Source: Acidobacteriota bacterium (lineage in GTDB: Bacteria; Acidobacteriota; Polarisedimenticolia; Polarisedimenticolales; JAIQFR01). From it: DNA of 64,000 bases. Location of the stretch: NCBI GenBank assembly GCA_041494445.1, contig JBGQAU010000005.1, positions 4,030-68,029 on the forward strand. The letters run 5' to 3'. Position numbers and translations under genes: made by a program. Positions within the stretch are counted from its first letter, which is position 1; every line of letters starts with the position of its first letter. The notes under the pieces were generated by a model. It made no database searches, was not told the DNA's origin, and saw only the letters and a list, made by a program, of their open reading frames with translations. This document shows, piece after piece, positions 9,358-23,876 of this stretch.

Positions 9358-9453
9358 TCTATGATGGGAGACGCCCGCGGGGGGACGGCGAACCAACGGG
9401 GTGGGAGCGTGCACCGGCGACCGCCTGACCGGCGCCCTCGCCAGGAGAATGCC

Positions 9454-11559
9454 GTGGCCGGGAACACCGAAGCGCCCGCCTTGAGAGGTCTCGACCGCAA
9501 CGCCCTGCTCGGCGTTCACCGCACGATGCTGCTCTCTCGAAAGGTGGACGAAAAGGAGATTCAGCTCAAGCGGCAGAACCGGACGTACTTCCAGATCCCC
9601 GGCGTCGGGCATGAGGCCCTGGGCGCGGCAGTCGGGCTCGTGTTCCGGCCGGGTCGTGATTGGTTCTTTTTCTACTACCGCGACCGCGCGGCGTGCATCT
9701 CGCTCGGCATGAGCCCGCGCGACATGTTCCTGCAGGCCGTGGGCTCGGCCGAGTGTCCACAAACCGGCGGACGCCAGATGCCCTCGCACTTCTCTTCGCC
9801 GGCGCTCCACGTGGCCAGCGTCTCCTCCCCCACCGGCACGCAGTTCCTCCAGGCGGTCGGGTGCGCGGAGGCCGGGCGCTACGCCGCCTCGCGCGGCGCG
9901 CTGCCCGGGGTCCCGTTCGTCGAAGACGAGGTCGCGCTCGTCACCTCGGGCGACGGGACGACCAGCGAGGGCGAGTTCTGGGAGGCTCTCTCGACGGCAA
10001 GCAACCTCAAGCTCCCCGTGGTGTTCCTGATCGAGGACAACGGCTATGCGATCTCGGTTCCGGTGGAGGTCAACACGCCGGGCGGGAGCATCAGCCGCCT
10101 CGTGGCGAGCTTTCCCGATCTCCTGATCCGCGAGGTGGACGGCTGCGATCCGCTGGCATCGTACGACGCCCTGTGCGCCGCGGCGGCGCACTGCCGCGCG
10201 CGCCGCGGCCCCGCCCTCGTGCACGCGCACGTGATCCGGCCCTTGAGCCACTCTCTTTCCGACGACGAGACGCTCTACCGCCCGCCCGAGGAGCGCGAGG
10301 CGGAAGCGAGGCGCGACCCGATCCGTGCCTTCGCCGATCTCCTCCTGGCCGAGACGATCGTGGACGCCGGCGTCCTCGAGGCGATCGAAGGGCAGGTGGT
10401 GGAGGAAGTGAACGCGGCGGCGGATTCCGCCCTCGCCGCCGCCAGGCCCGAGCCCGCGTCCGCCTTACGGTGGGTCTACTCGGAGGAAGTGGACCCGACC
10501 TCGGACGCGTTCGCGAGCGCACCGGCGCTAGAGGGAAGCCCGACCACCATGGTCGATCTGATCAACGCGTGCCTCCGCGACGAGATGCGGCGGGACTCAC
10601 GAATCGTCCTCTTCGGAGAGGACGTGGCGGACGTCTCGCGGGAGGCCGCGATCCCCAGGGTCAAGGGAAAGGGTGGGGTGTTCAAGGTCACCTGGGGCCT
10701 CCAGCGCGAGTTCGGGTCCGATCGCGTGTTCAACTCGCCCCTGGCCGAGGCCAACATCGTCGGGCGGGCGATCGGGATGGCCCTGCGCGGTTTGAAGCCC
10801 GTCGTGGAGATCCAGTTCTTCGACTACATCTGGCCGGCCTACATGCAGATTCGAGACGAGCTGGCCACGATGCGGTGGCGTTCCAACGGAACCTTCAAGG
10901 CGCCCGTCGTGGTCCGAGTCGCCTACGGGGGTTACATCCGCGGTGGCTCGACCTACCACAGCCAGTCCGGCGCCGCGTTGTTCACCGCCAACCCGGGGCT
11001 CCGCGTGGTCTGTCCCTCGAACGCCCTCGACGCCAACGGCCTTCTGCGCACCGCCATCCGCTGCGACGACCCCGTGATCTTCCTCGAGCACAAGCACCTG
11101 TACCGCCAGACCCACAATAAGTCGGTCTACCCCGGGCCCGACTTCATGGTGCCGCTCGGGCGCGCCTCCCTCGTGCGCGAGGGGACGGACCTGACCGTGA
11201 TCACCTACGGCGCCACCGTGCAGCGCGCTCTCACCGCGGCGCGCAAGGCGGAGGAAGCGGGCGTGTCCACCGAGATCCTCGACCTTCGATCGCTGTCCCC
11301 CGTCGACTGGGAGGCGATCTCGACCTCGGTGCGCAAGACGAGCAAGGCCCTGGTGCTGACCGAGGACTCCCTCTCCTGGGGGTACGGCGCGGAGATCGCG
11401 GCGCGGATCGGAGAGGATCTGCACTCGGACCTCGACGCGCCGGTGCGGCGCGTCGCCGCGACCGACACGTTCGTCGCGTACGCGCCCGAGCTCGAGGATT
11501 TCATCCTGCCGCAAGTGGAGGACATCCTGGAGGCGATCCGCGACCTGGCGGCGTGGTGA
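9454..11559 (+). CDS. 2-oxoacid (branched-chain) dehydrogenase E1 component, fused alpha-beta subunits
   Basis: Alpha part (TPP-binding): [10 protein letters not shown]..., [37 protein letters not shown]-like DNGYAISVP. Beta part: FGEDVA..., [19 protein letters not shown], transketolase C-terminal region. Start set at in-frame GTG 9454, preceded by AGGAG at 6-nt spacing. The ORF opens at 9361. Confidence 0.85.
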
Positions 11560-11572
11560 GACGAGGAGAGGA

Positions 11573-12751
11573 TCAGAACGACGAGAGGATCGCCGGGTCG
11601 CCCGTCCACCGCCCGCCCCGCCCCTGAAACGTGCGGCCCCGTCCTCCCCCCCTCGCTCCGAGAAGCTCGGAGAGCTTCCGGCCGGTGACCGAGACGTCTT
11701 CCGGCCCCGCCGGACCGGCCTGGACCAGGAAGGTCACTTCCCCGCCGTCGGGCGCCGCGCCGACCAGCGTCACGACCGCCTCCGGGCGCAAGGCGGCCAA
11801 CGCCGAGGCGATCTCGCGCAGGAAGTCCGGCCCTGACTCCCCGAGGAACCGGGCGAGCCGCGGCCCGGGCTCGGCGGCCATCTCGGCGGCGATCCGCGCG
11901 GCGAGGTCGCGTTCCAGGCTCTTCGCCCGGCGCGCGAGAAGCTTCCGCTCCGCCTGCCAGCCTTCGATCACCCCGGCGAACTCCTCTCGCGCCGTCCCGA
12001 TCCGCGCCTTGAGCGCCTCCTCGACCGCCGCCGCCTCGCGGAGCTCCCGGAGCACGCGGCCCCCGGCGAGAAACCGGATCCGGGCTCCCCCTCGCGCCGC
12101 CTCTGCGTCCACGACCCGCAGCATCTGGATCTCGCCGAGGCGCGCGACGTGGGTGCCACCGCACGTGTTGAGGTCGAGCGCCTCGATCTCGACCAGGCGG
12201 ACCTCTCCCACGTGCCCCTCGGGGAGGCCCCGGGTTCGGACCGGGAGCGAGTCGACGGCTTCCGGCGGGACCCACCGGGCCGAGACCCGCCGGTCGTGCC
12301 GGATTTCCAGGTTGGCCTCCTCCTCGAACGCGAGGAGCCGCTCCGGCGACGGGACCGGTCCTTGGACCTCGATCGCCGTGTACCGCTCGCCCAGGTGAAA
12401 GGCGGTGGTCGGGAGCCGGTGGCGATCGGCGAGCAGCGAAGTGAGCAGGTGCTGCGCGGTGTGCTGCTGCATCCGGTCGAAGCGGAGCGCCGCGTCGATC
12501 TCCGCGGTCGCCGGTCCGAGGGGAACCGGGCGCGCGAGGTAATGCAGGATCTTCTCTCCTCGGGTCCTTACATCCAGGACCGGGACCCCGCCGATCTCTC
12601 CGCGGTCGGCGGGCTGGCCGCCTCCTTCCGGATAGAAGATCGTCTCCTCGAGGCGTACCCAGGGACGGTCCGCTTCCACCCCCGCCTCGACCACGGCGGT
12701 CGCGAGGCGATACAGGCTCGGGTCCTCGTGGAACCTCTTCCGGTCGGGCAT
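11573..12751 (-). CDS. alaX: AlaX-type alanyl-tRNA editing protein (AlaRS second additional domain)
   Basis: From ATG 12751: MPDRKRFHEDPSLY...ETIFYPEGGGQPADRGEI...MQQHTAQHLLT...LNTCGGTHV (HxxxH...CxxxH zinc editing motif). 1-nt TGATG overlap with the upstream BCCP-like gene. Confidence 0.8.
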   Translation of the reverse strand: MPDRKRFHEDPSLYRLATAVVEAGVEADRPWVRLEETIFYPEGGGQPADRGEIGGVPVLDVRTRGEKILHYLARPVPLGPATAEIDAALRFDRMQQHTAQHLLTSLLADRHRLPTTAFHLGERYTAIEVQGPVPSPERLLAFEEEANLEIRHDRRVSARWVPPEAVDSLPVRTRGLPEGHVGEVRLVEIEALDLNTCGGTHVARLGEIQMLRVVDAEAARGGARIRFLAGGRVLRELREAAAVEEALKARIGTAREEFAGVIEGWQAERKLLARRAKSLERDLAARIAAEMAAEPGPRLARFLGESGPDFLREIASALAALRPEAVVTLVGAAPDGGEVTFLVQAGPAGPEDVSVTGRKLSELLGARGGGRGRTFQGRGGRWTGDPAILSSF

Positions 12752-13347
12752 CAGCGGACCACGATCAGGATCTGCCCTGCGCGAACCTCCTCGGAGTCGG
12801 CGCAACGGATCTCTGCGACCACCGCCTCCTCCGGAAACCCCGGGCCGCCGAACGCGATCTGATTGAAGGTCTTCATGACCTCGACGAGGCCCACCGGATC
12901 CCCCGTCCGGACGCGCGCGCCCGGCTCCACGAACGGAGGCGACGCCGGCGAGGGACGGCGGTAGAAGACCCCGTCCGTCGGCGAGAGCACCGCCCACGAC
13001 CCCGGCGCCAGCCCCGCTCCCGCGGGATGACCGGGCCTGTCCGCATCGGCGGACAGTCCCTGGCGCTCCCCGGCGTCCAACGGCGCAAGCTCGAAGAGCA
13101 CCTGCCCGTGCTCGACCGCGAGCGCGCGGTCGCGTGGAAGCCCGACCGCGACCTTCCCGGCCGCCCCTTCGGGGAGGACCAGGGCGAACCGGCGGCTGAG
13201 GTGCGCGAGGAAGCCGATCCGGCTCCCGGGGCCGAGCAGCGCACCCGGGTGGGGATGGTCCGTCCAGATCCCCACGAGGGGAGAGACCACCAGGGCCCGC
13301 CCGTCCTCGCCGCGTTCCGCCCTGGCCACGAGGATCGGCTCGTTCAT
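12751..13347 (-). CDS. Biotin carboxyl carrier-like protein (biotinyl/lipoyl hybrid-barrel domain, with degenerate N-terminal duplicate)
   Basis: C-terminus SPTDGVFYRRPSPASPPFVEPGARVRTGDPVGLVEVMKTFNQI...AGQILIVV carries the E-V-M-K biotinylation motif. Start at ATG 13347 (AAGGGG RBS about 7 nt upstream). The ORF-opening ATG 13398 has no spacing to any SD. Confidence 0.75.
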   Translation of the reverse strand: MNEPILVARAERGEDGRALVVSPLVGIWTDHPHPGALLGPGSRIGFLAHLSRRFALVLPEGAAGKVAVGLPRDRALAVEHGQVLFELAPLDAGERQGLSADADRPGHPAGAGLAPGSWAVLSPTDGVFYRRPSPASPPFVEPGARVRTGDPVGLVEVMKTFNQIAFGGPGFPEEAVVAEIRCADSEEVRAGQILIVVR

Positions 13348-13407
13348 CCCGTCACCCCTTCCGGCCGCATCCTGTCGCGGCTCCGGTAAGTCTAGCATCC
13401 CCGCGAC

Positions 13408-14637
13408 TTAGGCGAGCCGCCTTTCGCCCGCTGCCTCCCCCGAGGCACCCGCGGCAGCCGAAGTGTCCGTCTGAGTGTCCATTTCGCCGAACACCCGGTC
13501 AATCGCGCCCACCGCCCGGCGCAGGTGGCCCGGTTGTAGGGTCGCGTACCGCTGCGTCATGGCCGGGGTGGAGTGTCCGAGGATCTGTTGCAGCTCGTAC
13601 AGGCTCGCCCCGTCCTGAATCGTCCAGCTTGCGAACGTGTGCCGGAGCGTCGCGAAGGAGGCATCCGCGATCCCCGCTTTCCGCATGACTTTCTTCGTGG
13701 ACACCGTGACGACGTGCCGGGCCTTCTCGCTCGCGTAGTCCTCCCCGGTGCCGTCCACGAACACGAACGGGGAACGGACGTGCCGCACCCGGCCGTCCAG
13801 GATCGCTCGAACGGTCGCGTTCATGGGGACGGTACGGGAGCCCGTCTTGCTGTCCTCCGAAACGTGGAGCATCCCGGCGGCCTTGTCCACGTCCCCCCAT
13901 CCCAAGAGCAGGACTTCCTTGAGCCTCAACCCGGTACTGACCGCCATTCGCAGGATCGGCTTGAGCCACGGCGCCGCGGCGGTCTCAAGGGCCGTGTACT
14001 CCGCCTTCGTCAAGTACCGGGTCCGCGGCTTCGCCGGGCTCGGCTTCGGAAGGTCGGCGGCCGGGTTGTTTTCGATCACGCCCCACCGCGCCGCCATCTT
14101 AAACACCCGCCCCGCCGTCCGCAGGGCCTTTACGACGGTGGTGGGGCTGTACGGACGCCCCCGGGCGCAGCGCATCGTGCTCAGGTGGACCCGGAAAGCG
14201 TCCAGGTCCCCCCGGGTAATGTCCCGGATCGCCCGCTCTTGGAAGTAGGCGATCAGCGGGCGCGTGCTCGTGACGTAGTGATTCGAACGCCGCTTGCCGG
14301 GGTGCTCCCGGAGAAACCGCGTCACGAACTCGCCGACGGATGGCCCGCGGTCCGCCTCCGCTTTCCGGCGCGCCTTCTCCTCGCGGAGCTTGCGGTCTCG
14401 CGGGGTCTCGAACGTCCCGGTTCTGACCTCGTGCCGCCGCTGTTCCAGGAGCGCGCGCGCTTCGGTCAAACCGAGCCCGGCGTACTCCCGGATGCGCCGA
14501 TGGTGCTGGTCCCGGAAGTCAATCCGGTAGTACTCGGTGCCGTCTGAGCGTGTCACCTTGAACACGCAGCGGACGGGCCTCCCCCTACTGTCCTTAGCCT
14601 GGACGATACTCGGTTGTCCTCTCGCTTCGCTTGCCAC
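13408..14637 (-). CDS. int: Tyrosine recombinase / phage-type integrase
   Basis: 409 aa, GTG start with GGGAGG RBS. Catalytic signature: ...STGLRLKEVLLLGW (Arg), LRHTFASW (H-x-x-R), ILGHSTPAMTQRYA (His...Tyr). N-terminus VRCVFKVTRSDGTEYYRIDFRD looks like a small beta-sheet arm-binding domain. Confidence 0.9.
   Translation of the reverse strand: MASEARGQPSIVQAKDSRGRPVRCVFKVTRSDGTEYYRIDFRDQHHRRIREYAGLGLTEARALLEQRRHEVRTGTFETPRDRKLREEKARRKAEADRGPSVGEFVTRFLREHPGKRRSNHYVTSTRPLIAYFQERAIRDITRGDLDAFRVHLSTMRCARGRPYSPTTVVKALRTAGRVFKMAARWGVIENNPAADLPKPSPAKPRTRYLTKAEYTALETAAAPWLKPILRMAVSTGLRLKEVLLLGWGDVDKAAGMLHVSEDSKTGSRTVPMNATVRAILDGRVRHVRSPFVFVDGTGEDYASEKARHVVTVSTKKVMRKAGIADASFATLRHTFASWTIQDGASLYELQQILGHSTPAMTQRYATLQPGHLRRAVGAIDRVFGEMDTQTDTSAAAGASGEAAGERRLA
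13463..13482 (-). repeat. Island motif copy 1 (ATGGAC-ACTCAG-ACGGACAC read on minus strand), left terminus, inside int 3' end
   Basis: Plus strand reads gtgtccgtctgagtgtccat. Its reverse complement fits TGGAC-N6-ACGGACAC. A further GTGTCCG lies at 13573-13579. Confidence 0.7.
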
Positions 14638-14640
14638 GGC

Positions 14641-14940
14641 TTACCTCCCGCGCGCACGTCGGCGCGCCTGTTCGGCATTCTCGATTGCATGCTCCCACCG
14701 CTCCCGCAGTTCCCCGGCCGGGCAGAGGTCGCCCCGTTCCAGTCCCTCGACGCAGCTCTCGTGGAGCCCGAGCGCCTCCGCCAGCTCGGGGAGCGTGAGC
14801 CCGGTCCGCTTCCGCCGGCAGACAAGATGCCTTCGCCACGGTTCCATCATCCCCTCCGTGGGGGACGTGGCGACACACTCTCGGGGCTTGTCCGATCTTC
14901 TTGGTTTGGTAGGATTGGCGAAGCCGCTGGGCGTGTCCAC
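14641..14940 (-). CDS. XRE-family helix-turn-helix regulator
   Basis: 99 aa, GTG 14940 with GGAGG 6 nt upstream. RKRTGLTLPELAEALGLHESCVEGLERG is a canonical HTH_3-type helix-turn-helix. Sits 3 nt upstream of int. Confidence 0.65.
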   Translation of the reverse strand: MDTPSGFANPTKPRRSDKPRECVATSPTEGMMEPWRRHLVCRRKRTGLTLPELAEALGLHESCVEGLERGDLCPAGELRERWEHAIENAEQARRRARGR

Positions 14941-15041
14941 TCACGTCCTCCGGTTAGGGGCCGTCCGGCGTTTGCGCGTCGGGCGGTCCCGCTTGTTCGC
15001 CTACCTTCTACGCCCATCGGTGGCACCCGTCAACCCCTACC

Positions 15042-15060
15042 TGGACACGCCCACGGACAC
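15042..15060 (+). repeat. Island motif copy 2 (TGGAC-ACGCCC-ACGGACAC) in the divergent XRE / cargo-gene regulatory region
   Basis: Read directly from the sequence. 15046-15061 (CACGCCCACGGACACC) is an exact 16-nt repeat of 16714-16729. An inverted half-site GCGTGTCCA lies at 14931-14939. Confidence 0.75.
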
Positions 15061-15206
15061 CCTTTCCGGCTTCCCGCAGCCGGGCTCGCCGGTCCGCTCG
15101 ATTTCGCGCCGAGCATCGGCCCCCGGGGCGGATACGGCGCTCCCCTTGCCACCGTTGCCCCTCTGGGCGTACATCTACCGCAGCATTGCCCGAGGAGGGA
15201 TTCACG

Positions 15207-16058
15207 ATGAGAAACGTCCTCTTTCCTTTGCTCGTCCTCGCCGTCTTCTTGCCCGCCGTTGCCAGCGAGCCGGGGCAGCCGATTGATTGCAGCGATTGGG
15301 TGATCGTGAAACCGGGTATTACGTGTCGGGACATCCCGATCCCGACTCCGGCTCCTTGGTACTCTAGGCCGGGCGCAAACCCGGCCGACAACGAGAACTT
15401 CCTTATTGGAATCGTGTCGGTTAGGGGCTTCCCATTGGATTGCGGCTTCGGGCCTATCGAACAGCGGTACGAACTGCGACGCTTTAACGGAGTGAACGAC
15501 GAATTGGTCGCCTATGTGCAGGCGCGGTGTGGTCCCAGCGGATCCGCGGCAGATACACCAAATGTCGAAGGGATCTTCGGCTTTACATATAACAATGGGT
15601 TTCTCTACGTCGTGGGTACAGATGAGTGCTGGGGGGACGGGGTTAGCTGTGCGTACACTGCACAGAGTTGGCTCATTCGCTTCGAGGGTTTCACGACGGA
15701 GCTTGACGTGCTTCAGACGTTTACGTCTCAGGCGCGGCAAGTCGGCTTCCACGTTCCGGTCATGCCCGAGGGTATGGCCGCAGCCGACCATTTCGACACC
15801 TACTGGGGCGACCTCTCCGCGGTCGGCAACTGGTCGCAGGCGCACGGGCTGCAATGCCACTACCCCGACTCCCCTCCCACCCGCGGCGACTACCTGACCG
15901 TGGCCGACACGCTGCCAACCCCACAGCCCGGCCACGGCTACTACTACGTCACCGCCGCGACGTACCAGGGGCAGACGAGGTACGGGAGAAAGACGACGAA
16001 CAGGACGCTGAGCGGGAGGGATCCGGCGCAACTGCCGGCGTGCTCGCCCTTGAGGTAG
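15207..16058 (+). CDS. Secreted Cys-rich protein of unknown function (island cargo)
   Basis: GAGGAGGG RBS before ATG 15207. Signal peptide MRNVLFPLLVLAVFLPAVASEP. 8 Cys in the mature part. Visibly lower GC than its surroundings (15.3-15.7 kb). The only plus-strand gene in the island. No motif recognised. Confidence 0.6.
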   Translation: MRNVLFPLLVLAVFLPAVASEPGQPIDCSDWVIVKPGITCRDIPIPTPAPWYSRPGANPADNENFLIGIVSVRGFPLDCGFGPIEQRYELRRFNGVNDELVAYVQARCGPSGSAADTPNVEGIFGFTYNNGFLYVVGTDECWGDGVSCAYTAQSWLIRFEGFTTELDVLQTFTSQARQVGFHVPVMPEGMAAADHFDTYWGDLSAVGNWSQAHGLQCHYPDSPPTRGDYLTVADTLPTPQPGHGYYYVTAATYQGQTRYGRKTTNRTLSGRDPAQLPACSPLR

Positions 16059-16084
16059 CCTACCCATAGGCCGCTCGGCCGCCG

Positions 16085-16261
16085 TCACCGCTCCCACCTC
16101 TCCTCTTCGGTCATCGACCGCACGAGGTAGCAGCCACACTCGACACAGCACGGCGGTCTGCATCGGTGCTGCCGTACCGGGACGATCAGATATCGCCGCG
16201 TCTTCCCAATGCCCATCTCGATTCGCTGCGGGTGGCAATCCACGAGCCCGCGCACGGCCAT
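16085..16261 (-). CDS. Possible small Cys-rich protein (58 aa), below the ORF-track size cut-off
   Basis: Own translation: MAVRGLVDCHPQRIEMGIGKTRRYLIVPVRQHRCRPPCCVECGCYLVRSMTEEERWER. High GC3. Convergent with the cargo gene (26-nt gap). Its ATG lies only about 14 nt after a terminator-like hairpin, so expression is uncertain. Confidence 0.3.
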   Translation of the reverse strand: MAVRGLVDCHPQRIEMGIGKTRRYLIVPVRQHRCRPPCCVECGCYLVRSMTEEERWER

Positions 16262-16274
16262 GCGTCACCTCGCG

Positions 16275-16318
16275 AAAAAGAACCCGGCCGCCAGTTCCGG
16301 CCCCCTGGCTGGCGGAGA
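16275..16318 (-). terminator. Terminator-like hairpin + U-run closing the long island operon
   Basis: Minus-strand RNA reads CCGCCAG-N14-CUGGCGG (inner alternative GGCCG/CGGCC), then ccggguUCUUUUU. The U-run is 3-8 nt from the stem, so the geometry is imperfect. Confidence 0.35.
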
Positions 16319-16359
16319 CGACCGGGAGGGTATCCGCCCTTCCCCATGCGGACCGTGGC

Positions 16360-16629
16360 CTAATCCTCGATGGCCTCCGCGGCGCCCGACGCGATCAGGT
16401 CGCCCGCGGGATCGGCGAGAGCGCGAACGAGCGGCACGAGCACCGGGTTTTCGATTGCCTCGATGGCCGCGACCGCTGCATCCCGTGCGGTGGCATCGGC
16501 GACCAGGACGTACACCTCGAACGCCGCGCCTCCCGGGACCTCGAAGACCCCATCCGCCTCCGCCCGCCCGGCCCAGCCGTGATCGCGCCCCGTATCGACC
16601 GCTGTCAGGAAGTGCAGTTGCTTCGACAT
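16360..16629 (-). CDS. Hypothetical protein (89 aa), island
   Basis: ATG 16629 preceded by AGGAGAGAG: MSKQLHFLTAVDTGRDHGWAGRAEADGVFEVPGGAAFEVYVLVAD... The upstream 54 codons of the track ORF cover a motif-containing gap and look non-coding. Confidence 0.5.
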   Translation of the reverse strand: MSKQLHFLTAVDTGRDHGWAGRAEADGVFEVPGGAAFEVYVLVADATARDAAVAAIEAIENPVLVPLVRALADPAGDLIASGAAEAIED

Positions 16630-16705
16630 GCTCTCTCCTATGCCCCCGCGAGGCCGGCCGTCAGCGGCCGTGGCAACCACTGGCGCCCGGCCCGCGAGAA
16701 CGAGC

Positions 16706-16728
16706 TGGACGGCCACGCCCACGGACAC
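16706..16728 (+). repeat. Island motif copy 3 (TGGAC-N10-ACGGACAC), upstream of the 89-aa gene
   Basis: ctggacGGCCacgcccacggacacc equals copy 2 with a 4-nt GGCC insertion. 16-nt exact identity with 15046-15061. Confidence 0.75.
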
Positions 16729-16800
16729 CGCGGAGGGTCGCGGGAGCCCGGGCGCGCCGTCCCGATCTGTTTTCACCTTCGCATCCGCCATACCAGCGGA

Positions 16801-17307
16801 TCAGCGCCGCTCGGGCTGCCGCTTCGTCCAGTAGGCGAGCCCCGCTTGGAACCGCGCCTGCGGATCGTCGTCCTCCCGGCCCAGCGCGAGGGGGACGCCG
16901 CGCCTCACCGGCGTCTCCCCCCTGGCCGCCGAGAACCGCGCCGGGTCCTTCGCGCGGATCTGCATGAGCGCGTCGAGGTACGAGACCTCGCCGGAGGCGG
17001 AAAGCCGCATCGCCTCTTCGTGGATCGTCTGCGTTTCGCTTTTCATCGGATGGCCCTCCGCGGGATCGCGGTGGAGGTGGAGCGGGGCGCCGTGGACGCG
17101 CCCGGATTCGGTCGCAGCCCCGAGGGACGCGAGCAGCCGTTCGGCGAAGTCTCCGGGCATGTCGAGCCGCGCGGTCTCGAACAACTCGGGCGAGTCGTCA
17201 ATGACTTTCGTCAGCGCCTCGACGAAGCCCATGCCTTTTTGCTCGTGGGCGTAGATGGCCTGAAACAACGGCCGCGTCCGTTCGGTCGATTCGATGTAGG
17301 GAAGCAT
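16801..17307 (-). CDS. Hypothetical protein (168 aa), island
   Basis: ATG 17307 (MLPYIESTERTRPLFQAIYAHEQKGMGFVEAL...), 2 nt after the upstream gene's stop. No recognisable motif. The longer track ORF extension overlaps the upstream gene. Confidence 0.55.
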   Translation of the reverse strand: MLPYIESTERTRPLFQAIYAHEQKGMGFVEALTKVIDDSPELFETARLDMPGDFAERLLASLGAATESGRVHGAPLHLHRDPAEGHPMKSETQTIHEEAMRLSASGEVSYLDALMQIRAKDPARFSAARGETPVRRGVPLALGREDDDPQARFQAGLAYWTKRQPERR

Positions 17308-17309
17308 GG

Positions 17310-17831
17310 TCAGTACTCCATCAGGCCGCTGGCGACCTCGGAAAACGCGGCCGTGATCGCCGAGGTCGCGTCCCCCGCGATGTTCGGCACGGACATGCCC
17401 GGCGCGGCGTTGGCCGCGGCCGAGAACTCGGCACCGGCCCGGAGGACCTCGGCGACCGCCTCCCGGACGGCCTTCCCGCGGAGAGCGGCCGCGATGGCGC
17501 TGGACAGTCGGCCCCGGGCGTCCCCGTGCTCGCGTTCGAGGCCGGGACTCGCGGCCGCGCCCCAAGCCTCGCGCGCCTTGCTCTCTTCGTCGGCCGCGAC
17601 CTGGTACGCCGCTGCCAAGATGCCCGCGTGCTCCCGGGCGTGGGCGGTCTCGCCGGCCAGGGCGTTCAGTCGCGCCAGCGGCAGGCCGGGGTCGTACCGA
17701 GCGCGCTGCAATTGCTCGTGCTTGTCGTGCGCCTCGCCCGTGGCCGCGAGCAATTCCGCCCGCCTCCGCCCGGCTGCGTCGGCCGTCGCCCGAAGGTCGG
17801 CGACCTTGGTCTCAGAAGCGAAATTCAACAT
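17310..17831 (-). CDS. Hypothetical Ala-rich helical protein (173 aa), island
   Basis: ATG 17831 with GGAG about 9 nt upstream. MLNFASETKVADLRATADAAGRRRAELLAATGEAHDKHEQLQRA..., predicted all-helical by composition. No known motif. Confidence 0.55.
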   Translation of the reverse strand: MLNFASETKVADLRATADAAGRRRAELLAATGEAHDKHEQLQRARYDPGLPLARLNALAGETAHAREHAGILAAAYQVAADEESKAREAWGAAASPGLEREHGDARGRLSSAIAAALRGKAVREAVAEVLRAGAEFSAAANAAPGMSVPNIAGDATSAITAAFSEVASGLMEY

Positions 17832-17846
17832 GGTAGTGATCTCCGA

Positions 17847-17865
17847 TGGACTGCGCGACGGACAC
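17847..17865 (+). repeat. Island motif copy 4 (TGGAC-TGCGCG-ACGGACAC), immediately upstream of the RBS of the 173-aa gene
   Basis: Read directly from gatggactgcgcgacggacaccc, in the 78-nt gap between genes. Confidence 0.75.
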
Positions 17866-17909
17866 CCGCGACCCTCGCGAGCAATTCGGCGCGTGTTTAT
17901 TGACTTTTC

Positions 17910-18155
17910 TCAACATGGCATCGGCTCTTGTGGCGGGTGCGCCTCCGCGGCCTCCACGTCGAGCCCGACTTCCGGCGCCGGGCCGAACGTCCAGCGCAAC
18001 GTGGCGGAGCCCCCACAGGCGGGGCAGGTTCCGTCGTGCCGCGTCCCATCTGGGAACGTCCAGCCAAGCCGGACGCCGTGACAGGTGGAGCACTCGCCGA
18101 GGCGGAAGCGGCGGACGTGATCTTCAAGGCGTTCCAGGCGGCCTCGGATGCTCAT
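17910..18155 (-). CDS. Small Zn-ribbon protein (81 aa), paralogue B
   Basis: MSIRGRLERLEDHVRRFRLGECSTCHGVRLGWTFPDGTRHDGTCPACGG..., i.e. CxxC...CxxC. ATGA overlap with the upstream paralogue. Confidence 0.5.
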   Translation of the reverse strand: MSIRGRLERLEDHVRRFRLGECSTCHGVRLGWTFPDGTRHDGTCPACGGSATLRWTFGPAPEVGLDVEAAEAHPPQEPMPC

Positions 18156-18415
18156 GAGGGAATCCCCCCGGGGATCCTGACGTGCCTCGCTCTCCCGACC
18201 TCGCGCCCGCACCGCGCGCACCGGCCGGCCGCGTCCAGCTCCACGTCGGCCGCCTCGCGCACTGAGTAGGCTTCAGGGAGGCCGGTCGCGGCGACGGGTA
18301 CCGGCGTACCGTCCGAGAGGAGAACGACGAACGGGACGGCGCCGGGCGCCTGACACGGGCAAGCGTTGCCGCCGAGGCGCCGTTCAATCGAGTCAAGGCG
18401 TGATCGGACTCTCAT
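18152..18415 (-). CDS. Small Cys-motif protein (87 aa), paralogue A
   Basis: MRVRSRLDSIERRLGGNACPCQAPG...GRCARCGREV, i.e. CxC...CxxC. Same N-terminal RL-x2-hE-x-(R/H)h heptad as paralogue B. ATGA overlaps on both sides. Confidence 0.5.
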   Translation of the reverse strand: MRVRSRLDSIERRLGGNACPCQAPGAVPFVVLLSDGTPVPVAATGLPEAYSVREAADVELDAAGRCARCGREVGRARHVRIPGGIPS

Positions 18416-18831
18416 CGTTGCTCCCCTTGTGCCAACCGCGCCTCAAGCGCGTCGAGCCGGGTTTCAAGGATCGCCAGCTCGTGAATACGGACCATGCTTT
18501 CCAGAACCGTTCGGCACGCCCCAAGCGCAACGGGCTCGTTCGCGGAGGACACGAGCTGAGTGAGGCGGGCAAGAACAGCGTCCGCGAGCCCGGCGAGCCC
18601 GGCCGCCGTCACCGCGAGGCTTCGACCGCGGACCCGGTTCAACTGCTCCCGGAACGCGGGATCGCGCATCCGGCGCGCGACGGTGCGGGGCGAGACCCCG
18701 GCCGCCACCGCTGCTTCCGCCCACGTGGCCCCGGTCGCGAGCGCCGTCAAGAGCGCCTGTTCGCCGGGGGCTCCGGGTCCTCTACGCGCCACGTGACACC
18801 TCCGGCCCCCCGTGGACGCCTGGACGGACAC
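18412..18831 (-). CDS. HTH DNA-binding protein (139 aa), island; possibly small-terminase-like or regulator
   Basis: GTG 18831. LLTALATGATWAEAAVAAGVSPRTVARRMRDPAFREQL is an HTH, followed by a helical C-terminus ending ILETRLDALEARLAQGEQR. Lies directly downstream of the ori. Confidence 0.55.
   Translation of the reverse strand: MSVQASTGGRRCHVARRGPGAPGEQALLTALATGATWAEAAVAAGVSPRTVARRMRDPAFREQLNRVRGRSLAVTAAGLAGLADAVLARLTQLVSSANEPVALGACRTVLESMVRIHELAILETRLDALEARLAQGEQR
18813..18831 (+). repeat. Island motif copy 5 (TGGAC-GCCTGG-ACGGACAC), overlapping the start codon of the 139-aa HTH gene
   Basis: Read directly from cgtggacgcctggacggacacc. The terminal CAC is the reverse complement of the GTG start. 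Confidence 0.7.
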
Positions 18832-18973
18832 CGGCGCGCCCGGGCTCCTGGCCGGTTCGTGGCGCCGCCGTTTCTCGTGGGGAGCATCGGCCCGTTGAGC
18901 GCATGGGGCGCGGTTGCCACGAGTCCGGGCGGCCCCCCGGAGCCCTAGCGGGGGGGGCCGCCTCGTGGCGGTG

Positions 18974-19108
18974 GAGGTCGTGTGCGGTCGTGCTGCGGTC
19001 GTGCGGTCGTACCGTCGTACAACAACCGCATTTTTCTTTAAGGGGTGCAGCAGTCGTCATTCAGGCTCCCATATCCGCCGTGCAGTCGTTTGCGGTCGTT
19101 GCGGTCGT
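18974..19108 (+). repeat. Iteron cluster with central AT-rich spacer: candidate origin of replication of the island
   Basis: Same-orientation copies of GC(G/A)GTCGT: GAGGTCGT 18974, GCGGTCGT 18984, 18995 and 19003 (the last two tandem), CCGTCGT 19012. AT-rich patch catttttctttaa at about 19029-19041. Then GCAGTCGT 19050 and 19082, GCGGTCGT 19092 and 19101. Abuts and overlaps the 3' end of the helicase gene. Confidence 0.6.
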
Positions 19109-20556
19109 GGGCTCCCGGTGAGGAAGTACCGCATCTGTTTGCCGTCCTTCCGGCGTTCGATCCGACCTCGCTTTCGGAGCGCCCCGAGGGCGCCATCCGC
19201 CGCCCGCTCGGAGTACCCAGAGCGGCCGATGATCTCGCCCCGAAGGAGCCCCGAGCCGGCGGCCTCCTCCAACAAGGCAACGATGGAGTCCTGCACGCGA
19301 TCCGAGGCGCGGTCCACGTTCCCGGCGTACTCCACGCGGACGGGACCGTTATCCTCCGCGTCCGGTTCCAGCCCGGTCAGTTCCAGGAGGAACGGTGCCG
19401 GGAGCGCGGAGTGTCTGGTTTTCGTCGGGATCAGCGCGAGCCGTTCTTGCCGGCGTTCAAGGCCGAAGTGCGCGTCTGCCCTGTTTCGCTTGTCGAGGCT
19501 GCCCCGAAGCGCCTGGTCCGGTGCGTCGAGGTCCGGTTCTCCCGTTACTTTTCGCGTGTGGTCGGTGAGGATGATCCCGCACCCCAGCTCGACGCGGAGC
19601 GGGTCAAGCGCCTGAGTGAACACGGCCGAGATATCTTCGGACGTGTTCTCACGCGCGGTCGTCGCGCGGCGGAAGCTGTCCACGATCAGGAACTCAGTCC
19701 GCCACTCACCGAGGCTCGCGATCAGTCGGCCGAGGCTCTTGGGGTCGTCCAGTTGCAGCCGGCACCGAATGAGCTGGACTCGCCCCGCGAGTTTCTCCGC
19801 GGTGATCTCTTCGCCGAGCGCGAGTCGTTGCAGGCGGCCGTCCGTTTCCCACGGCCGCGATTCGAGGTCGAGGATCGCGACGCGGTAGGGCCGCGTCACC
19901 TCGAAACGGCCCCAGAGCGTTCGACCCGTCGCGAGGCTCAGACTCGCCGAAAGCACGAGCCAGCTTTTTCCGATTCCGCCGGGACCCGTTACCAGAACAA
20001 CGTCACCTTCGGCGATGGCCTCGCGAGCGGCCCACGGGACCGGCGGGGTCGGTCGTGGGAGCACGTCGGCCGCGTCCTCGGCTGGGAGGAGCGCGGCGCC
20101 GGCGCCGAGGCGGATCGCGCCGAGAGCGTCACGCGCGACCCCGAGGAGCGCCGACAGCTCGACGTCGGTTGTCCCGTTCGCCGCGGCCTCCGTGATCTCG
20201 GCGCCGATGCGTACCGCGTCGCGGCGGTGCGCCCGGTCGCGGACGATCCGGGCATACGCTTCCGCGTTCCTGGAATGGGGACACGCGGAGTCGAGGTCGG
20301 CGACATACGCGGGGCCGCCGGCCGCTTCCAGCTCGTGCGTCCGTTCCAGCTCTGAGCAGACGGTGCGGAGGTCGAGCGGGCCGCCGGCGTCTGCTACGGA
20401 CAGGAACGCGCGCCAGATGATGCGGTGTGGCCCGACGTAGAAATGCGAGTCCGAGAGGATCGCGCGGGCCGCATCGAACGCTTCACGCGAGAGCAGCGCG
20501 GCGCCGAGGACAGCGCGCTCAGCGTCGCGATCGTGGGGGAGCGCGCCGGGGATCAT
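19057..20556 (-). CDS. Replicative helicase-like protein: DnaB N-terminal domain + RecA/RepA-type (AAA_25-like) ATPase + C-terminal winged-helix
   Basis: From ATG 20556. LPHDRDAERAVLGAALLSREAF...HRIIWRAFLSVADAGGPLDLRTV...GGPAYVADL parallels the host DnaB N-terminus at 46274. Walker A VVLVTGPGGIGKSWL, Walker B EFLIVDSF. C-terminus LLRGEIIGRSGYSERAADGALGALRKRGRIERR is wHTH-like. The upstream 151 codons of the track ORF overlap other genes. Confidence 0.85.
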   Translation of the reverse strand: MIPGALPHDRDAERAVLGAALLSREAFDAARAILSDSHFYVGPHRIIWRAFLSVADAGGPLDLRTVCSELERTHELEAAGGPAYVADLDSACPHSRNAEAYARIVRDRAHRRDAVRIGAEITEAAANGTTDVELSALLGVARDALGAIRLGAGAALLPAEDAADVLPRPTPPVPWAAREAIAEGDVVLVTGPGGIGKSWLVLSASLSLATGRTLWGRFEVTRPYRVAILDLESRPWETDGRLQRLALGEEITAEKLAGRVQLIRCRLQLDDPKSLGRLIASLGEWRTEFLIVDSFRRATTARENTSEDISAVFTQALDPLRVELGCGIILTDHTRKVTGEPDLDAPDQALRGSLDKRNRADAHFGLERRQERLALIPTKTRHSALPAPFLLELTGLEPDAEDNGPVRVEYAGNVDRASDRVQDSIVALLEEAAGSGLLRGEIIGRSGYSERAADGALGALRKRGRIERRKDGKQMRYFLTGSPRPQRPQTTARRIWEPE

Positions 20557-20774
20557 GCTGCACCGCCGATCCGCTCCGCAGGCCGATGCACGTCCACGGA
20601 AACCCGCGTCCGCCTCGCGTTTCCTCGGCTGCGTTTCGCCGGATGTCCGTCCACGAGCCCGAGACGCAGTTGGGCCGCGCGTTCGGTAAGTCTGAGGATG
20701 CCATCCGTATCGAGCCGATCCGCGGACCGCAGGAGAACCGCGAGCAGCTCCGCGCGGAGCGTCGCGGCGGTCAT
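20553..20774 (-). CDS. Hypothetical protein (73 aa), island
   Basis: ATGA overlaps with both neighbours and co-oriented. No motif. Confidence 0.4.
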   Translation of the reverse strand: MTAATLRAELLAVLLRSADRLDTDGILRLTERAAQLRLGLVDGHPAKRSRGNARRTRVSVDVHRPAERIGGAA

Positions 20775-21061
20775 GGCCGGGCCTCGGCGGCCACCGGGGC
20801 ATCGGCGGGGTGGATGATGTTGAGGTGGTACAGGTACTTGTGCGGGCCGAACGACACGAGCCCCTGTGTCCGCCGGATCTCGCGAAGGGTCCCCCTCGCG
20901 TCCCGGTGCTGAAGTGAAACGACGCGGACGCAGCCGACCCGGCCCACGAGCGGCGCGAGCTGCTCTCGCTTGCGCCTGGTCCGCTCGTTCTCTTCGGCTC
21001 GCGCCTCATCGTGGGTGACGCGCAGTCGCTCTAACCTAGCCTCAAGGTCTCTGAGGTTCAT
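20771..21061 (-). CDS. Hypothetical protein (96 aa), island
   Basis: MNLRDLEARLERLRVTHDEARAEENERTRRKREQ... (coiled-coil N-terminus). ATGA overlaps on both sides. Confidence 0.45.
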   Translation of the reverse strand: MNLRDLEARLERLRVTHDEARAEENERTRRKREQLAPLVGRVGCVRVVSLQHRDARGTLREIRRTQGLVSFGPHKYLYHLNIIHPADAPVAAEARP

Positions 21062-21684
21062 GGCCGCACCTCAACGGCCGGGCGCCGAGGACGCCACGAG
21101 GCAAGCCACCGCAAGGCAGCCTCGCGCGGGATCGCGAGCCGCGGCATTGCCGGGTTGCCGTCCTTGATGACCGAGAGTCGGCCGCGCCGGATCGCGCTGT
21201 AGATCGTCGGGAGCGCGGGCGCGGGTGGCCGGGTTACGGCTTGGAGCTGTTCGGGAGTGAAACTCGGGAAGGGCGGGAGTGGTGGGGGTGGGTCGGAGTC
21301 GCCGGTACTTGGGCCGTCGCGAGTCGTGGACGCACGGGACGCGCCAGCGGTGCACCGGGCTTGCCGATGCGCTCCACGGGGCCGCGCTACGCGCTGGACG
21401 GGCCTCCTGGTGCGGAGCGCCGTCCAGCGGGCGAGGCGGACGGCCCGGGACTCTCTCAGGAGCACGGCCGGAAGAACGATCCGCCGTCGCCGCTCCGGCC
21501 GGGTGAACTCGTAGGACCGCTTCAACCGCTCGACGGTTTCAAGGCTCGCCTTGGCCGCCGCGGTCTCGCCGCGCCGGGCGAATCCTTCGGCACGGGCCTG
21601 GTACCGCTTGATGTCTGTCGCGAGGTCCGAGCGTGTGAGCCGCGACCCGACCCCCACGCCGTGCTGAAAGACGAGGATTGCCAC
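21058..21684 (-). CDS. Excisionase-like (MerR/HTH_17-type) DNA-binding protein with N-terminal extension (208 aa)
   Basis: GTG 21684 with GAGGAGG 6 nt upstream. C-terminus LPTIYSAIRRGRLSVIKDGNPAMPRLAIPREAALRWL resembles Xis/AlpA-type HTH. Pro-rich linker. Confidence 0.55.
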   Translation of the reverse strand: MAILVFQHGVGVGSRLTRSDLATDIKRYQARAEGFARRGETAAAKASLETVERLKRSYEFTRPERRRRIVLPAVLLRESRAVRLARWTALRTRRPVQRVARPRGAHRQARCTAGASRASTTRDGPSTGDSDPPPPLPPFPSFTPEQLQAVTRPPAPALPTIYSAIRRGRLSVIKDGNPAMPRLAIPREAALRWLASWRPRRPAVEVRP

Positions 21685-21696
21685 GGTGGTCCTCCT

Positions 21697-21822
21697 CTAC
21701 TCGCCGAGTGCCGATGCGATCAAGCGCCGCACCAGGCTCGACAAGGAGCGGTCCTCGGCTCGGGCGCGTGCCTCAAGCAGGGCCTTGATTTCGTGCGGGA
21801 CAGTCACGTTGAGCGCGGTCAT
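21697..21822 (-). CDS. Ribbon-helix-helix (CopG/Arc-type) protein, 41 aa
   Basis: ATG 21822 with AAAGGAGG 8 nt upstream: MTALNVTVPHEIKALLEARARAEDRSLSSLVRRLIASALGE (beta-strand, helix, helix). First gene of the island operon. Confidence 0.5.
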   Translation of the reverse strand: MTALNVTVPHEIKALLEARARAEDRSLSSLVRRLIASALGE

Positions 21823-21861
21823 CGAGTCTGCCTCCTTTCGTGAAGGGTTTGTCATGAACGA

Positions 21862-21891
21862 ACAGTAACGCCGACGCGCCGCCATTGTCAA
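21862..21891 (-). promoter_or_regulatory. Candidate promoter of the island operon
   Basis: Minus strand reads TTGACA (21891..21886), 18 nt, TACTGT (21867..21862), about 40 nt upstream of the RHH start. AGTG-N6-CACT dyad just upstream. Hexamers only. Confidence 0.35.
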
Positions 21892-21971
21892 GAGTGATTC
21901 AACACTTTGGCAGCCCGCCGGCTGCACCACTACCACACAGCCACGGGACCCCGCGAGACCGGGCGCCGCGT

Positions 21972-21990
21972 GTGTCCGTTTTCTGTCCGT
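21972..21990 (-). repeat. Island motif copy 6 (CGGAC-AGAAA-ACGGACAC read on minus strand), right terminus
   Basis: Plus strand reads gtgtccgttttctgtccgt. Same orientation as copy 1. N5 spacer instead of N6. Confidence 0.7.
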
Positions 21991-22060
21991 CCGCTGCGTA
22001 ACTATGCGTCCGGGGTGCTGATGTTTCGGGAATGCGCGTGATCGGCCCGAAACCCCCTGA

Positions 22061-22100
22061 TAAACGAAAAGCGCGGCGAGCCGTGAAACCCGCCGCGCTT
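22061..22100 (-). terminator. Rho-independent terminator downstream of the carboxyltransferase gene
   Basis: Minus-strand RNA reads AAGCGCGGCG-ggguuucacggc-CGCCGCGCUU (10-bp perfect stem; arms at 22069-22078 and 22091-22100), followed by UUUCGUUUA. Second hairpin GTTTCGGG/CCCGAAAC at 22023-22053. Confidence 0.6.
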
Positions 22101-22151
22101 CACTGTCAAAGTTATGCTTATCGAGACAATGGGCTCCGCTCGTTCATCTTC

Positions 22152-23876
22152 TCACCCCGCGAGGACCGACAGATCGTGCAACGACCAGATCCGAGGGTTC
22201 TTCACCCGCCGGTAGCCGATCGACTGGTACGCCATGGCGACCGCGGACTCGATCCAGAGCCTAAGCTCCCCGGGGCGGACGATCTCGTCCACGTCCATGC
22301 GGGAGGCGGCGAGCACCGGGTCCATGTCGCGGCTGATGCGCGCCTCGACCGCCTCCATGCCTCTCCGGGTCTCTTCCGCCTCCTCGGGGGTCTTCGCCAC
22401 GATGTTGAAGTGGTCGTCGAGCTTCGCGTTGTAGGCCCCGATCGCCAGCGTCTTCCCCTCCATCACGGCGAGCCGCGTCATCGGGGTCGCGAGCTGGAGC
22501 ACTGGCCGATACGGAAGCCCCGAGAGGGCGTAGTACCCCGCTCCCGACGCCTTCCGCAGGAGCACCGTGAACATCGGCACGGCGTTGGCCGAGTTCGTGT
22601 AGATCAGGCTCGACCCGTAGCCGAGAAGCCCCTCCCGCTCGGCCTCGGGGCCGATGTCGAAGCCGGAGATGTCCTGGAGCCAGATGATCGGGATCCCGTC
22701 GTCGTTCAGCGCGCGGGAGAACTGCGAGACCTTGGCAATCCCCTCCCGATAGAGGATCCCTCCCGGGCGCTTCGCGTCGCGCTTCACGGGATCGTCCGTC
22801 AGGAGCGGATTGTTCGCGATGAACCCGGCATAGAGGCCGCCCACCCTCCCCACGCCGCAGATCATCTCGGGACCCACCCCGGGAAGCACTTCCCAGAACA
22901 GCGAGTGGTCGACGAGCCGCGCCAGGACATGGCGCATCTCGAACCCCATGCGGTGATCGACGGGAAACAGGCCCTCCAGCTCCGATGGCGGATACGCGGG
23001 GGGCGCCGGGTCGGCGCCGTAACGGTAGTACTCCCAGGCGGGACTCGGGAGCTTCGCCACCTCCGCGCGCAGCCGGTCGAGGAGCACCGCGTCGTCGGGA
23101 ACCCGGTGGTCGGCGCAGCGGCTCTGATGGACGTGGACGTCGGGCCCGCCGATGGACAGCGACGTGATCTTCTGCGACTTGCCCCCCTTCACCAGGGCGG
23201 CGCCCGCGATCACCATGTAGGCCTGCTCGGTCATGTAGACCACGTCGCTGATGATCGGCATGTAGCCGCCGCCCGCGATGCAGTCGCCGTGAACCCCGGC
23301 GATCTGGGGCACCCCCGCCGCCGAGAGGAGCGCGTTCATCCGGAAGATCCCGCCGGCGCCGGTGCGGCCGGGGAAGGTCTGCGACTGCTCCGGAAGGAAG
23401 AGCCCCGACGAGTCCACGAGGTAGATCACCGGGAGGCGGAGGCTGAGGGCCGCTTCCTGCGCCCGCTGGATCTTCTCGGGCGTCCGCGGCCACCACGACC
23501 CGGACGCCACCGTGTTGTCGTTGGCGATCACCACCACCCATCGGCCGTGGACGCGGACGAACGCGGTCACCACCCCCGCGCCCGGGGACGTCCTCGCGTC
23601 CTCGCCGAAGGTCCGCCCCCAGTTCACCAGGGTGCCGATGGGAAGCACCGGACTGTCGGAGTCCTTGAGCCGCTCCACCCGCTCCCAGGTCGGCAGCTTC
23701 CCCTTCTCGCGGACCCTGGCCTCGTACTTCGGACCCCAACCGGCCCGCACCGCCGCTCGCTTGCTTTCCAGCGCGCGCCCTTGCTCTTCCGCCGCATCGC
23801 ACTGCGCCCGCCACACGTCGTCTCGGAGGAAACGCTCGTGCGGCTCGCCGATCGGCTCCAGGATCACCTTGGCCAC
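22152..23876 (-). CDS. Acyl-CoA carboxylase carboxyltransferase subunit (fused CT, GcdA/MccB-like)
   Basis: 574 aa from GTG 23876 (G-rich RBS, 11 nt after the accC stop). [16 protein letters not shown]..., [54 protein letters not shown], close in layout to glutaconyl-/methylcrotonyl-CoA CT subunits as I recall them. Confidence 0.9.

Follow-up and report, generated by a model that had tools for sequence, protein, structure and literature searches.

Why should one short word stand at both ends of an integrated element and again, several times, in its interior, and which protein reads it? The question is raised by an 8.8-kb island (~13348–22149) bounded by an imperfect 27-nucleotide (nt) direct repeat, which lies in a 64-kb stretch of an Acidobacteriota bacterium genome (contig JBGQAU010000005.1, positions 4,030 to 68,029; hereafter the window, in whose numbering coordinates are given) and carries six copies of the octamer ACGGACAC. 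A preliminary description of these copies had named as possible readers the island's tyrosine integrase (Int), through arm-type sites at the ends, and the small regulators encoded within the island. On balance, the evidence favors a blend of two proposals: that tandems of the form GGACAC-N6-GGACAC would serve as arm sites of Int at the ends of the island, and that the internal modules in which such tandems are embedded would be regulatory sites bound by the same protein.

The repeated unit

Counted on both strands, ACGGACAC occurs eight times in the window, and six of these copies fall inside the island, all at the places and on the strands first reported; of the two copies outside it, that at 912 had been noticed before, and a second lies at 45141. 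Dinucleotide shuffles yield 2.17 copies per 64 kb, with none of 100 shuffles reaching eight, and the island holds six copies where ~0.3 are expected (Poisson P ~1e-6), in agreement with the enrichment originally proposed. The description of the motif as TGGAC followed by ACGGACAC proved incomplete, however. The true unit consists of two GGACAC hexamers in direct tandem, GGACAC-N6-GGACAC, whose start-to-start period is 12 bp, so that the statement that the GGAC cores stand about one helical turn apart was roughly right. The third copy, thought to have an N10 spacer, is in fact in the usual 12-bp register, its upstream half being degenerate (GGCCAC at 16711–16716), and the spacer length given for the sixth was wrong, this right-end tandem having a period of 11 bp. 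The copies are as follows:

13463–13482, minus strand: S1, ATGGACAC-TCAG-ACGGACAC, 12-bp period (octamer at 13463)
15043–15060, octamer at 15053 on the plus strand: S2, CTGGACAC-GCCC-ACGGACAC
16711–16728, octamer at 16721 on the plus strand: S3, ACGGCCAC-GCCC-ACGGACAC, halves GGCCAC/GGACAC
17848–17865, octamer at 17858 on the plus strand: S4, ATGGACTG-CGCG-ACGGACAC
18814–18831, octamer at 18824 on the plus strand: S5, GTGGACGC-CTGG-ACGGACAC
21972–21990, minus strand: S6, ACGGACAG-AAA-ACGGACAC, 11-bp period (octamer at 21972)
13573–13579, minus strand: extra half-site CGGACAC, oriented as S1
912, plus strand: ACGGACAC outside the island
45141, minus strand: ACGGACAC outside the island

Of the tandems with at most one mismatch over the two hexamers, five fall within the 8.8 kb of the island and a single one in the 55 kb outside it, and the pattern GGAC-N8-GGACAC, expected 0.22 times, has five matches in the window, four of them in the island; GGAC alone and TGGAC alone show no enrichment there. 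A repeat-family search recovered the 16-mer CACGCCCACGGACACC that S2 and S3 had been said to share, and the half-sites reported at 13573 and 14931–14939 were also found, the latter at 14933. All four exact internal copies (S2–S5) lie in non-coding DNA, which makes up 16% of the island, on a common strand and in a common register, and the terminal copies have the opposite orientation.

The end copies and the integrase

The attachment sites and the integrase gene lie at the following positions:

13332–13358: attL candidate, first copy of the 27-nt repeat, 81% identical to the copy at 22132–22158
22132–22158: attR candidate, second copy of the 27-nt repeat
13408–14637, minus strand: int, tyrosine integrase, 409 aa (PF00589, E 2.7e-23; phrog_1, E 1.9e-61)

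The identical core of the 27-nt repeat, GCTCGTTCATC, contains the start codon of the host gene for a biotin-carboxyl-carrier protein (BCCP), which the island separates from the carboxyltransferase gene upstream of it. The proposed crossover core is GATGAACGAGC, and attB is predicted to be GGGGTGAGAAGATGAACGAGCCGATCC, at the carboxyltransferase–BCCP junction; a tRNA scan of the window found no tRNA involved at the attachment site. S1 lies ~105–120 bp and S6 ~150 bp from the repeat, in direct orientation to one another, and S1 encodes the C-terminal tail of Int, EMDTQTDT. In the excised circle S1 would be the P' arm and S6 the P arm, flanking the core, and the half-site at 13573–13579 is possibly a third P' arm site.

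The AF2 model of Int places three strands (residues 24–29, 35–42 and 48–52) and a helix (57–73) before the helical core-binding domain, with a pLDDT of 85–86. Three strands and a helix are also the topology of the arm-binding domains of lambda and Tn916 Int. The best PDB match to residues 1–195 is full-length lambda Int (1z1b), over 173 aligned columns with E 3e-4 and a poor root-mean-square deviation; Pfam gave no arm-domain match to Int, and BLASTP found no stand-alone paralogue of the N-terminal domain in the island. As modeled, this β3-α domain (residues ~24–73) is consistent with, and not proof of, an arm-binding domain.

Seven elements with Int relatives (42–58% identity) were recovered as DNA from metagenomes; the metagenome scan gave five loci, three of them useful. 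A perfect GGACAC-N6-GGACA(C/A) tandem lies between int and att in L002/L003, L004/L005, L090, L093/L094 and L095, 35–100 bp past the RY..L.P.HLR motif of int. By tblastn, no island protein other than Int has a homologue in the loci of the relatives, whose attB is tRNA-Leu or tRNA-Lys, as against the BCCP start in the island. In the window, L090, L093 and L095 the tandem is inside the C-terminal tail of int, in the frame xxG GAC ACx that is read as ...DTxxDT..., whereas the tandems of L002 and L004 lie past the stop codon and in a different frame; retention of the tandem in both settings argues for a constraint on the DNA and not on the peptide. The int ORF (open reading frame) overprints the P' arm as an (E/V)xDTxxDT tail in four members, the arm lying past the stop in two. 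When a position weight matrix built from the relatives only was run over the 64 kb, its three best positions were S1 (25.1 bits), S5 (19.8 bits) and S2 (16.5 bits).

The N-terminal 60 residues of Int fall into two subtypes, '..IDFRD..RR(V/I)RE..' and '..IRY....(R/K)xxxE(K/R)..'. All six GGACAC-type elements have the first and are 42–92% identical to each other there, whereas L096 and L097 have the second and are 29–38% identical to the first group in this domain. At the equivalent position, and with a similar period, L097 carries two copies of CGGCGACCCAGG (half-site GGCGAC) and L096 carries GGCCCC-N5-GGCCCC. The neighboring HTH_17 protein of L096 is 46–53% identical to those of GGACAC-type elements despite the different tandem; that of L095 is only 33–39% identical, and the window has no detectable HTH_17 homologue. 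The motif thus tracks the subtype of the Int N-domain and not HTH_17, which points to Int rather than a recombination directionality factor (RDF) as its reader.

The same comparison bears on an alternative that we consider unlikely, namely that the tandem is bound by a small bifunctional RDF of the Cox or Apl type, which would serve both excision and promoter switching and would be either the XRE-type protein of the island or its 208-aa protein with an HTH_17-like C-terminus. Direct repeats 12 bp apart, at att and ahead of operons, would suit such a protein, and a small helix-turn-helix (HTH) gene does abut int. However, the tandem occurs on both arms, a placement characteristic of Int arm sites rather than RDF sites, it follows the Int N-domain and not the accessory HTH_17 or XRE proteins, and tblastn finds no RDF-like protein common to the island and the relatives. 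The earlier proposal that the terminal copies are arm-type sites of the integrase is well supported by the tandem kept near int, by its covariation with the N-domain and by the predicted β3-α domain, and on this evidence we hold it to be highly probable.

In two of the related loci, L004 (8780–8796) and L088 (1922–1939), a near-perfect tandem, opposite in orientation to the int-adjacent copy, is found 44–80 bp past the 5' terminus of the bordering tRNA-Leu; in L088 the int-proximal tandem has decayed. Possible origins of the inverted copy are a host-side site, the remnant of another element or an attP-like junction. P-arm sites of the relatives were not located, and no att repeat was found within 10 kb. 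Scans of genome contigs with Int gave nothing, or relatives of at most 40% identity through generic catalytic motifs that were not used as evidence. The best Int matches in annotated phage and plasmid collections were at most 33% identical and left the N-domain uncovered, and in viral contigs neither the Int N-domain nor the 58-aa protein of the island gave a match.

The internal modules and their possible readers

Alignment of the flanks on the octamer places the four exact internal copies in the 3' part of a module of ~105 bp, which occurs five times in the island with no indels. Each module consists of a 21-bp quasi-palindrome, AT(C/G)CGC-N7-G(C/G)CGATGC, an A-rich patch (GAAA) and the tandem, which starts exactly 60 nt after GCCGATGC (GCGGATGC in M3), the right half of the palindrome. 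Neither this fixed tie of each internal copy to a palindrome nor a fifth, degenerate internal copy at 20642–20661 on the plus strand was part of the preliminary description. The modules are listed with the E-values at which each was recovered when it was left out of the search model:

15030–15140, minus strand: M2, palindrome 15113–15133 (ATCCGC-N7-GCCGATGC), tandem 15043–15060; E 2.8e-9
16698–16808, minus strand: M3, palindrome 16781–16801 (ATCCGC-N7-GCGGATGC), tandem 16711–16728, upstream of the 89-aa gene; E 0.027
17835–17945, minus strand: M4, palindrome 17918–17938, tandem 17848–17865; E 3.7e-4
18801–18911, minus strand: M5, palindrome 18884–18904, tandem 18814–18831; E 1.2e-3
20562–20672, plus strand, inverted: M6, palindrome 20569–20589, degenerate tandem 20642–20661 (ATGTCCGT-CCAC-GAGCCC); E 0.02, full-length

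In this leave-one-out nhmmer analysis each omitted module was recovered full-length as the best non-training match (E 3e-9 to 0.03). The five modules align gap-free although the DNA between their conserved elements has diverged, and even the degenerate tandem of M6 stands at the same 60-nt distance from its palindrome. A pattern search at no more than one mismatch finds the palindrome five times in the island and once elsewhere in the window. Elsewhere in the island, GCCGATGC occurs without the remainder of the module, no further module copies were found in the window or in related loci, and the module pattern gave 74 single chance matches in viral contigs, none of them with the left half of the palindrome or a second half-site. 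A structured RNA leader was considered and rejected, with an RNAalifold covariation term of +3.96, single-sequence z-scores of −1.6 to +1.5 and a palindrome free of compensatory changes; the lack of an RNA structure signal indicates that the modules are double-stranded DNA sites.

Modules precede the starts of the helicase gene (M6), the HTH/terS-like gene (M5), the 173-aa gene (M4), the 89-aa gene (M3) and the XRE-int pair (M2), at tandem-to-start-codon distances of 15–193 nt, while the internal geometry of the module is invariant. M2 sits between the divergent XRE-int and cargo genes. The palindrome of M4 overlaps the end of the 81-aa gene, and its tandem ends 1 nt before the Shine–Dalgarno (SD) sequence of the 173-aa gene. 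M5 begins where homology to the origin region of a related element, L172, ends, and its tandem lies ~10 nt upstream of the SD sequence of the HTH (terS-like) gene. This copy had been thought to cover the HTH start codon, which is probably not the case: gene callers and the SD sequence (GGAGG at 18800–18804) place the start at GTG 18792, giving a protein of 126 aa, and the site lies 22–39 nt upstream of it. The M6 palindrome is 13–33 nt upstream of the helicase start, the module lying inside a 73-aa ORF.

We propose a model whereby Int, as a lambda-type (heterobivalent) recombinase, would read GGACAC-N6-GGACAC with its small N-terminal β-sheet domain. In the excised circle, the P' (S1) and P (S6) arms would flank the 27-bp BCCP-start core for assembly of the intasome. 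At the internal modules, the N-domains of Int would dock on the tandems, while a second activity, either the core-binding and catalytic domains of Int (making the module a ‘pseudo-att’ site) or an island HTH dimer such as the XRE protein, would hold the palindrome, with the intervening DNA bent at the A-rich patch. Palindrome and tandem are ~72–73 bp apart from center to center, roughly seven helical turns, a spacing compatible with a phased loop. The looped complex could act as an operator or a roadblock and would tie expression of the island operons, int included, to the level of Int; repression or roadblock is the favored effect, because the M4 and M5 tandems abut the ribosome-binding site. 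That the internal modules are Int-bound regulatory sites is plausible, if a little short of probable. The att-like order of the module (inverted repeat with a 7-bp spacer, A-rich bend, arm tandem), its polarity, which is that of attL, and a likeness of GCCGATGCTC to GCCGATCCTC at attL hint that Int's own domains may occupy the palindrome. A more far-reaching version, in which Int would be the master regulator through five ‘pseudo-att’ operators, with looped intasome-like complexes gating each operon without strand exchange, is doubtful.

Several observations weigh against the proposed model. The end copies S1 and S6 lack the palindrome and are oriented opposite to the internal copies, and the two classes may be read differently. 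The isolated N-domain model has no significant Foldseek match. The likeness of GCCGATGCTC in the module to GCCGATCCTC on the attL side (9/10) is weak, similar 10-mers occurring 23 times in the window. The modules were detected in this island alone; its available copies, being at least 99.99% identical, carry no conservation signal, and nothing comparable to this set of internal sites is seen in the Int relatives examined. A sigma-70 promoter scan of the island found none at the scan threshold and none convincing at the modules; two candidates picked by hand, TTGACG-N17-TAGAAG after M2 and TTGACA-N18-TACTGT before the ribbon-helix-helix (RHH) gene, are weak and were given no weight. Finally, a 14-mer mismatch scan of L172 did not rise above shuffles, leaving internal arm-like copies there, upstream of terS and of the capsid gene, as only a hint.

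The regulators that could bind the palindrome are encoded as follows:

14641–14850, minus strand: XRE-type HTH protein, 69 aa, directly upstream of int (HTH_31, E 1.8e-4, below the Pfam cutoff)
18412–18792, minus strand: HTH protein, 126 aa, with weak matches to terminase small subunit and sigma factor families
21697–21822, minus strand: RHH protein, 41 aa, first gene of the leftward string (PF01402, weak)

The 69-aa XRE protein is a candidate binder of the palindrome, or else a candidate RDF, and the 126-aa HTH and 41-aa RHH proteins are alternative candidates. The original suggestion that the motif is an operator of an XRE, RHH or HTH protein is, for the tandem, neither shown nor excluded; a direct repeat is ill-suited to a symmetric HTH dimer, and the tandem tracks Int and not the accessory HTH proteins, so that the palindrome appears the better candidate operator for a dimeric HTH protein. 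A second alternative, which we regard as quite unlikely, assigns the module to such a regulator altogether: it would read the 21-bp palindrome, and the GTGTCC tandem would be inherited or secondary, as a duplicated att-arm fragment or a non-canonical promoter, with no action of Int. ATCCGC-N7-GCGGAT indeed has the size and symmetry of an XRE-type operator, each transcription unit is preceded by a module, two weak divergent promoter candidates read by eye flank M2, and the Int relatives are without such internal sites. Yet conservation within the module is highest in the tandem (four of the five modules have GGTGTCCGT unchanged, M6 having GGATGTCCGT), which carries the extended 8-mer of both arm sites and keeps a distance of exactly 60 nt from the palindrome; a fossil would not hold spacing and sequence in five copies while the intervening DNA diverged.

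It is very improbable that the modules are attL-like sites at which Int would delete, invert or rearrange blocks of genes. The core-like palindrome, bend and arm tandem do mimic half an att site, the polarity from core to GTGTCC is that of attL, where GCCGATCCTC resembles GCCGATGCTC, and M6 is inverted relative to M2–M5. The true att core, however, has no such palindrome; the five 7-nt spacers (CCCGGGG, TGGTATG, CACAAGA, TCAACGG and TCCGCAG) differ from one another and from the att overlap region (TGAACGA), so that strand exchange between modules is not expected; and three other assemblies of the island are collinear and 99.99–100% identical, with no rearranged variants. Chance or composition (codon usage or GC-rich low complexity) can safely be set aside, for although GGAC and TGGAC alone are unenriched and GCCGATGC-like words are common in the genome, the 8-mer, the tandem and the full module all lie far above shuffled and flanking-DNA expectation, and the four exact internal copies share one strand and one register in non-coding DNA.

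The island among satellites and other integrase systems

All but one of the island genes are leftward. In the direction of transcription they encode the RHH protein, proteins of 208, 96 and 73 aa, a DnaB-N/AAA_25 helicase and, after an iteron-rich gap, the 126-aa HTH protein; there follow proteins of 87, 81, 173, 168, 89 and 58 aa, the rightward cargo gene, the 69-aa XRE protein and the 409-aa integrase. The sole rightward gene (15207–16058), over which GC content dips to 62%, encodes a 283-aa secreted protein with no family match that is probably the cargo of the island. Leftward transcription would end ahead of this convergent gene at a terminator-like hairpin (16286–16302, minus strand) situated between the genes for the 89-aa and 58-aa proteins. 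The C-terminus of the 208-aa protein (21058–21684; PTIYSAIRRGRLSVIKDG...AIPREAALRWL) resembles an excisionase-type HTH_17, matching the 85-aa HTH_17 protein of L096 with E 0.04, and Pfam reports nothing; the protein is a possible RDF encoded far from int. Inside attR (region 22068–22149), a 9-codon mini-ORF repeats ATG AAC GAG, the first three BCCP codons, and is followed by a strong intrinsic terminator on the minus strand (22101 to 22068). With this mini-ORF and terminator inside attR, the island cuts the carboxyltransferase–BCCP operon, and BCCP must therefore be expressed from the island side.

The region at 18911–19110, which is conserved with L172 (11504–11649 of that sequence), contains a GC-rich inverted repeat, GGCGGCCCCCC...GGGGGGCCGCC, as well as GCGGTCGT repeats that resemble iterons. 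By its repeats and its position between the helicase and HTH genes, it is a candidate replication origin; two independent assemblies (L001 and L007) break there.

L172 carries at 7880–17240 a complete satellite-like element of ~9.4 kb, integrated at tRNA-Gly(ccc) with a 45-bp att repeat and encoding Terminase_4 (small terminase), an HK97-type capsid protein, a helicase and an Int of another family (27% identity). Compared with the island, its helicase is 53% identical, its 58-aa protein 73%, and its origin-region DNA 66% over 18911–20110. The 58-aa Cys-rich protein, CHP...CRPPCCVECGC (16085–16261; L172 14489–14701; 73% protein and 76% DNA identity), is the best conserved between the two, above the helicase. 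A helicase search of viral contigs gave one relative at 42%, L175, which has no int. The homology of helicase, 58-aa protein and origin to an element with terminase and capsid genes indicates that the island, as judged from its gene content, is a reduced satellite-like integrative element. It resembles capsid-forming satellites such as L172, which are akin to phage-inducible chromosomal islands, in its collinear regulators, helicase, origin, terS-like gene, opposite-strand cargo, small HTH gene and int; unlike L172, it has no capsid gene and no clear terS, whereas L172 lacks the 105-bp module family. L172 has an arm array of its own, 33 nt long (CAGGTCGCTG(T/C)AAAGGTCGCAGGTC..), near both ends in direct orientation, with one copy in the int tail, the two-arm plan also seen for S1 and S6 in the island. 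The arm word AAAGGTC occurs three times in 21.5 kb, in the two arms and once internally, where it begins a 14-nt arm-like site, AAAGGTCGAATCTA, that ends 1 nt before the capsid ATG.

To our knowledge, arm-type sites are usually seen as local accessories of att, and Int is known to regulate only its own gene, where an att arm overlaps the int promoter. If the modules bind Int, arm-binding specificity would be deployed across the whole element as a regulatory code, and the level of one protein would link integration state, replication (through the helicase), the terS-like operon and int; if the ‘pseudo-att’ version of the model also holds, a recombinase architecture would have been co-opted wholesale for control of transcription. 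The 105-bp module is compact and easily tested. At the ends, the comparison of relatives describes an Int family whose arm-site code can be read, the half-site being GGACAC, GGCGAC or GGCCCC depending on the subtype of the N-domain, and gives a rule for finding the P' arm in this family, namely in or just past the C-terminal tail of int.

The arm-type sites of lambda Int are P1, P2 and P'1–3. IntS of ICEMlSymR7A has five P (arm-type) sites (PMC11963761). As in these heterobivalent systems, the end copies are short non-core repeats on both sides of the core, within ~150 bp of it, in tandem about a helical turn apart, Int is predicted to have an extra N-terminal domain, and the sites vary in step with the integrase rather than with the remainder of the element. 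Unlike known arm sites, the word also occurs five times far from att (1.6–7 kb) in elaborate modules, the P' copy is overprinted on the C-terminal codons of int, and the period is 12 bp.

Regulation by Int through such sites has precedents. KplE1 IntS and P4 Int repress int through arm-type sites that overlap its promoter (PMC2951348), and in ICEMlSymR7A Int represses transcription through arm-type sites at att itself (PMC11963761). The island would likewise have Int regulate transcription from arm-type sites, M2 lying upstream of the XRE-int operon. In KplE1 and P4, however, the attL arm itself provides the sites and regulation is confined to int, whereas the island copies stand apart from att, are paired with a palindrome and precede four further gene groups (helicase, HTH/terS-like, 173-aa and 89-aa). 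Island int is transcribed toward attL, and its upstream region is M2, 1.7 kb from attL; the overlap of attL with the int promoter is therefore absent here, and only the principle of Int as a regulator could apply. In RDF sites, direct repeats follow one another at about one helical turn, and both Apl of phage 186 and Cox of P2 bind the early promoter region as well as att (PMC7498355; PMC11963761). The island resembles these systems in that one word, in direct repeats at att and at internal sites, could couple recombination to transcription, but the Apl and Cox words are read by a small winged-HTH RDF and lie on one arm only, whereas that of the island is on both arms and follows the Int N-domain. 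Set beside these systems, the end copies very probably belong to a known kind of site, the arm-type site, of a previously uncharacterised Int family, and the five-fold internal composite module, as read from its sequence, is a new variant.

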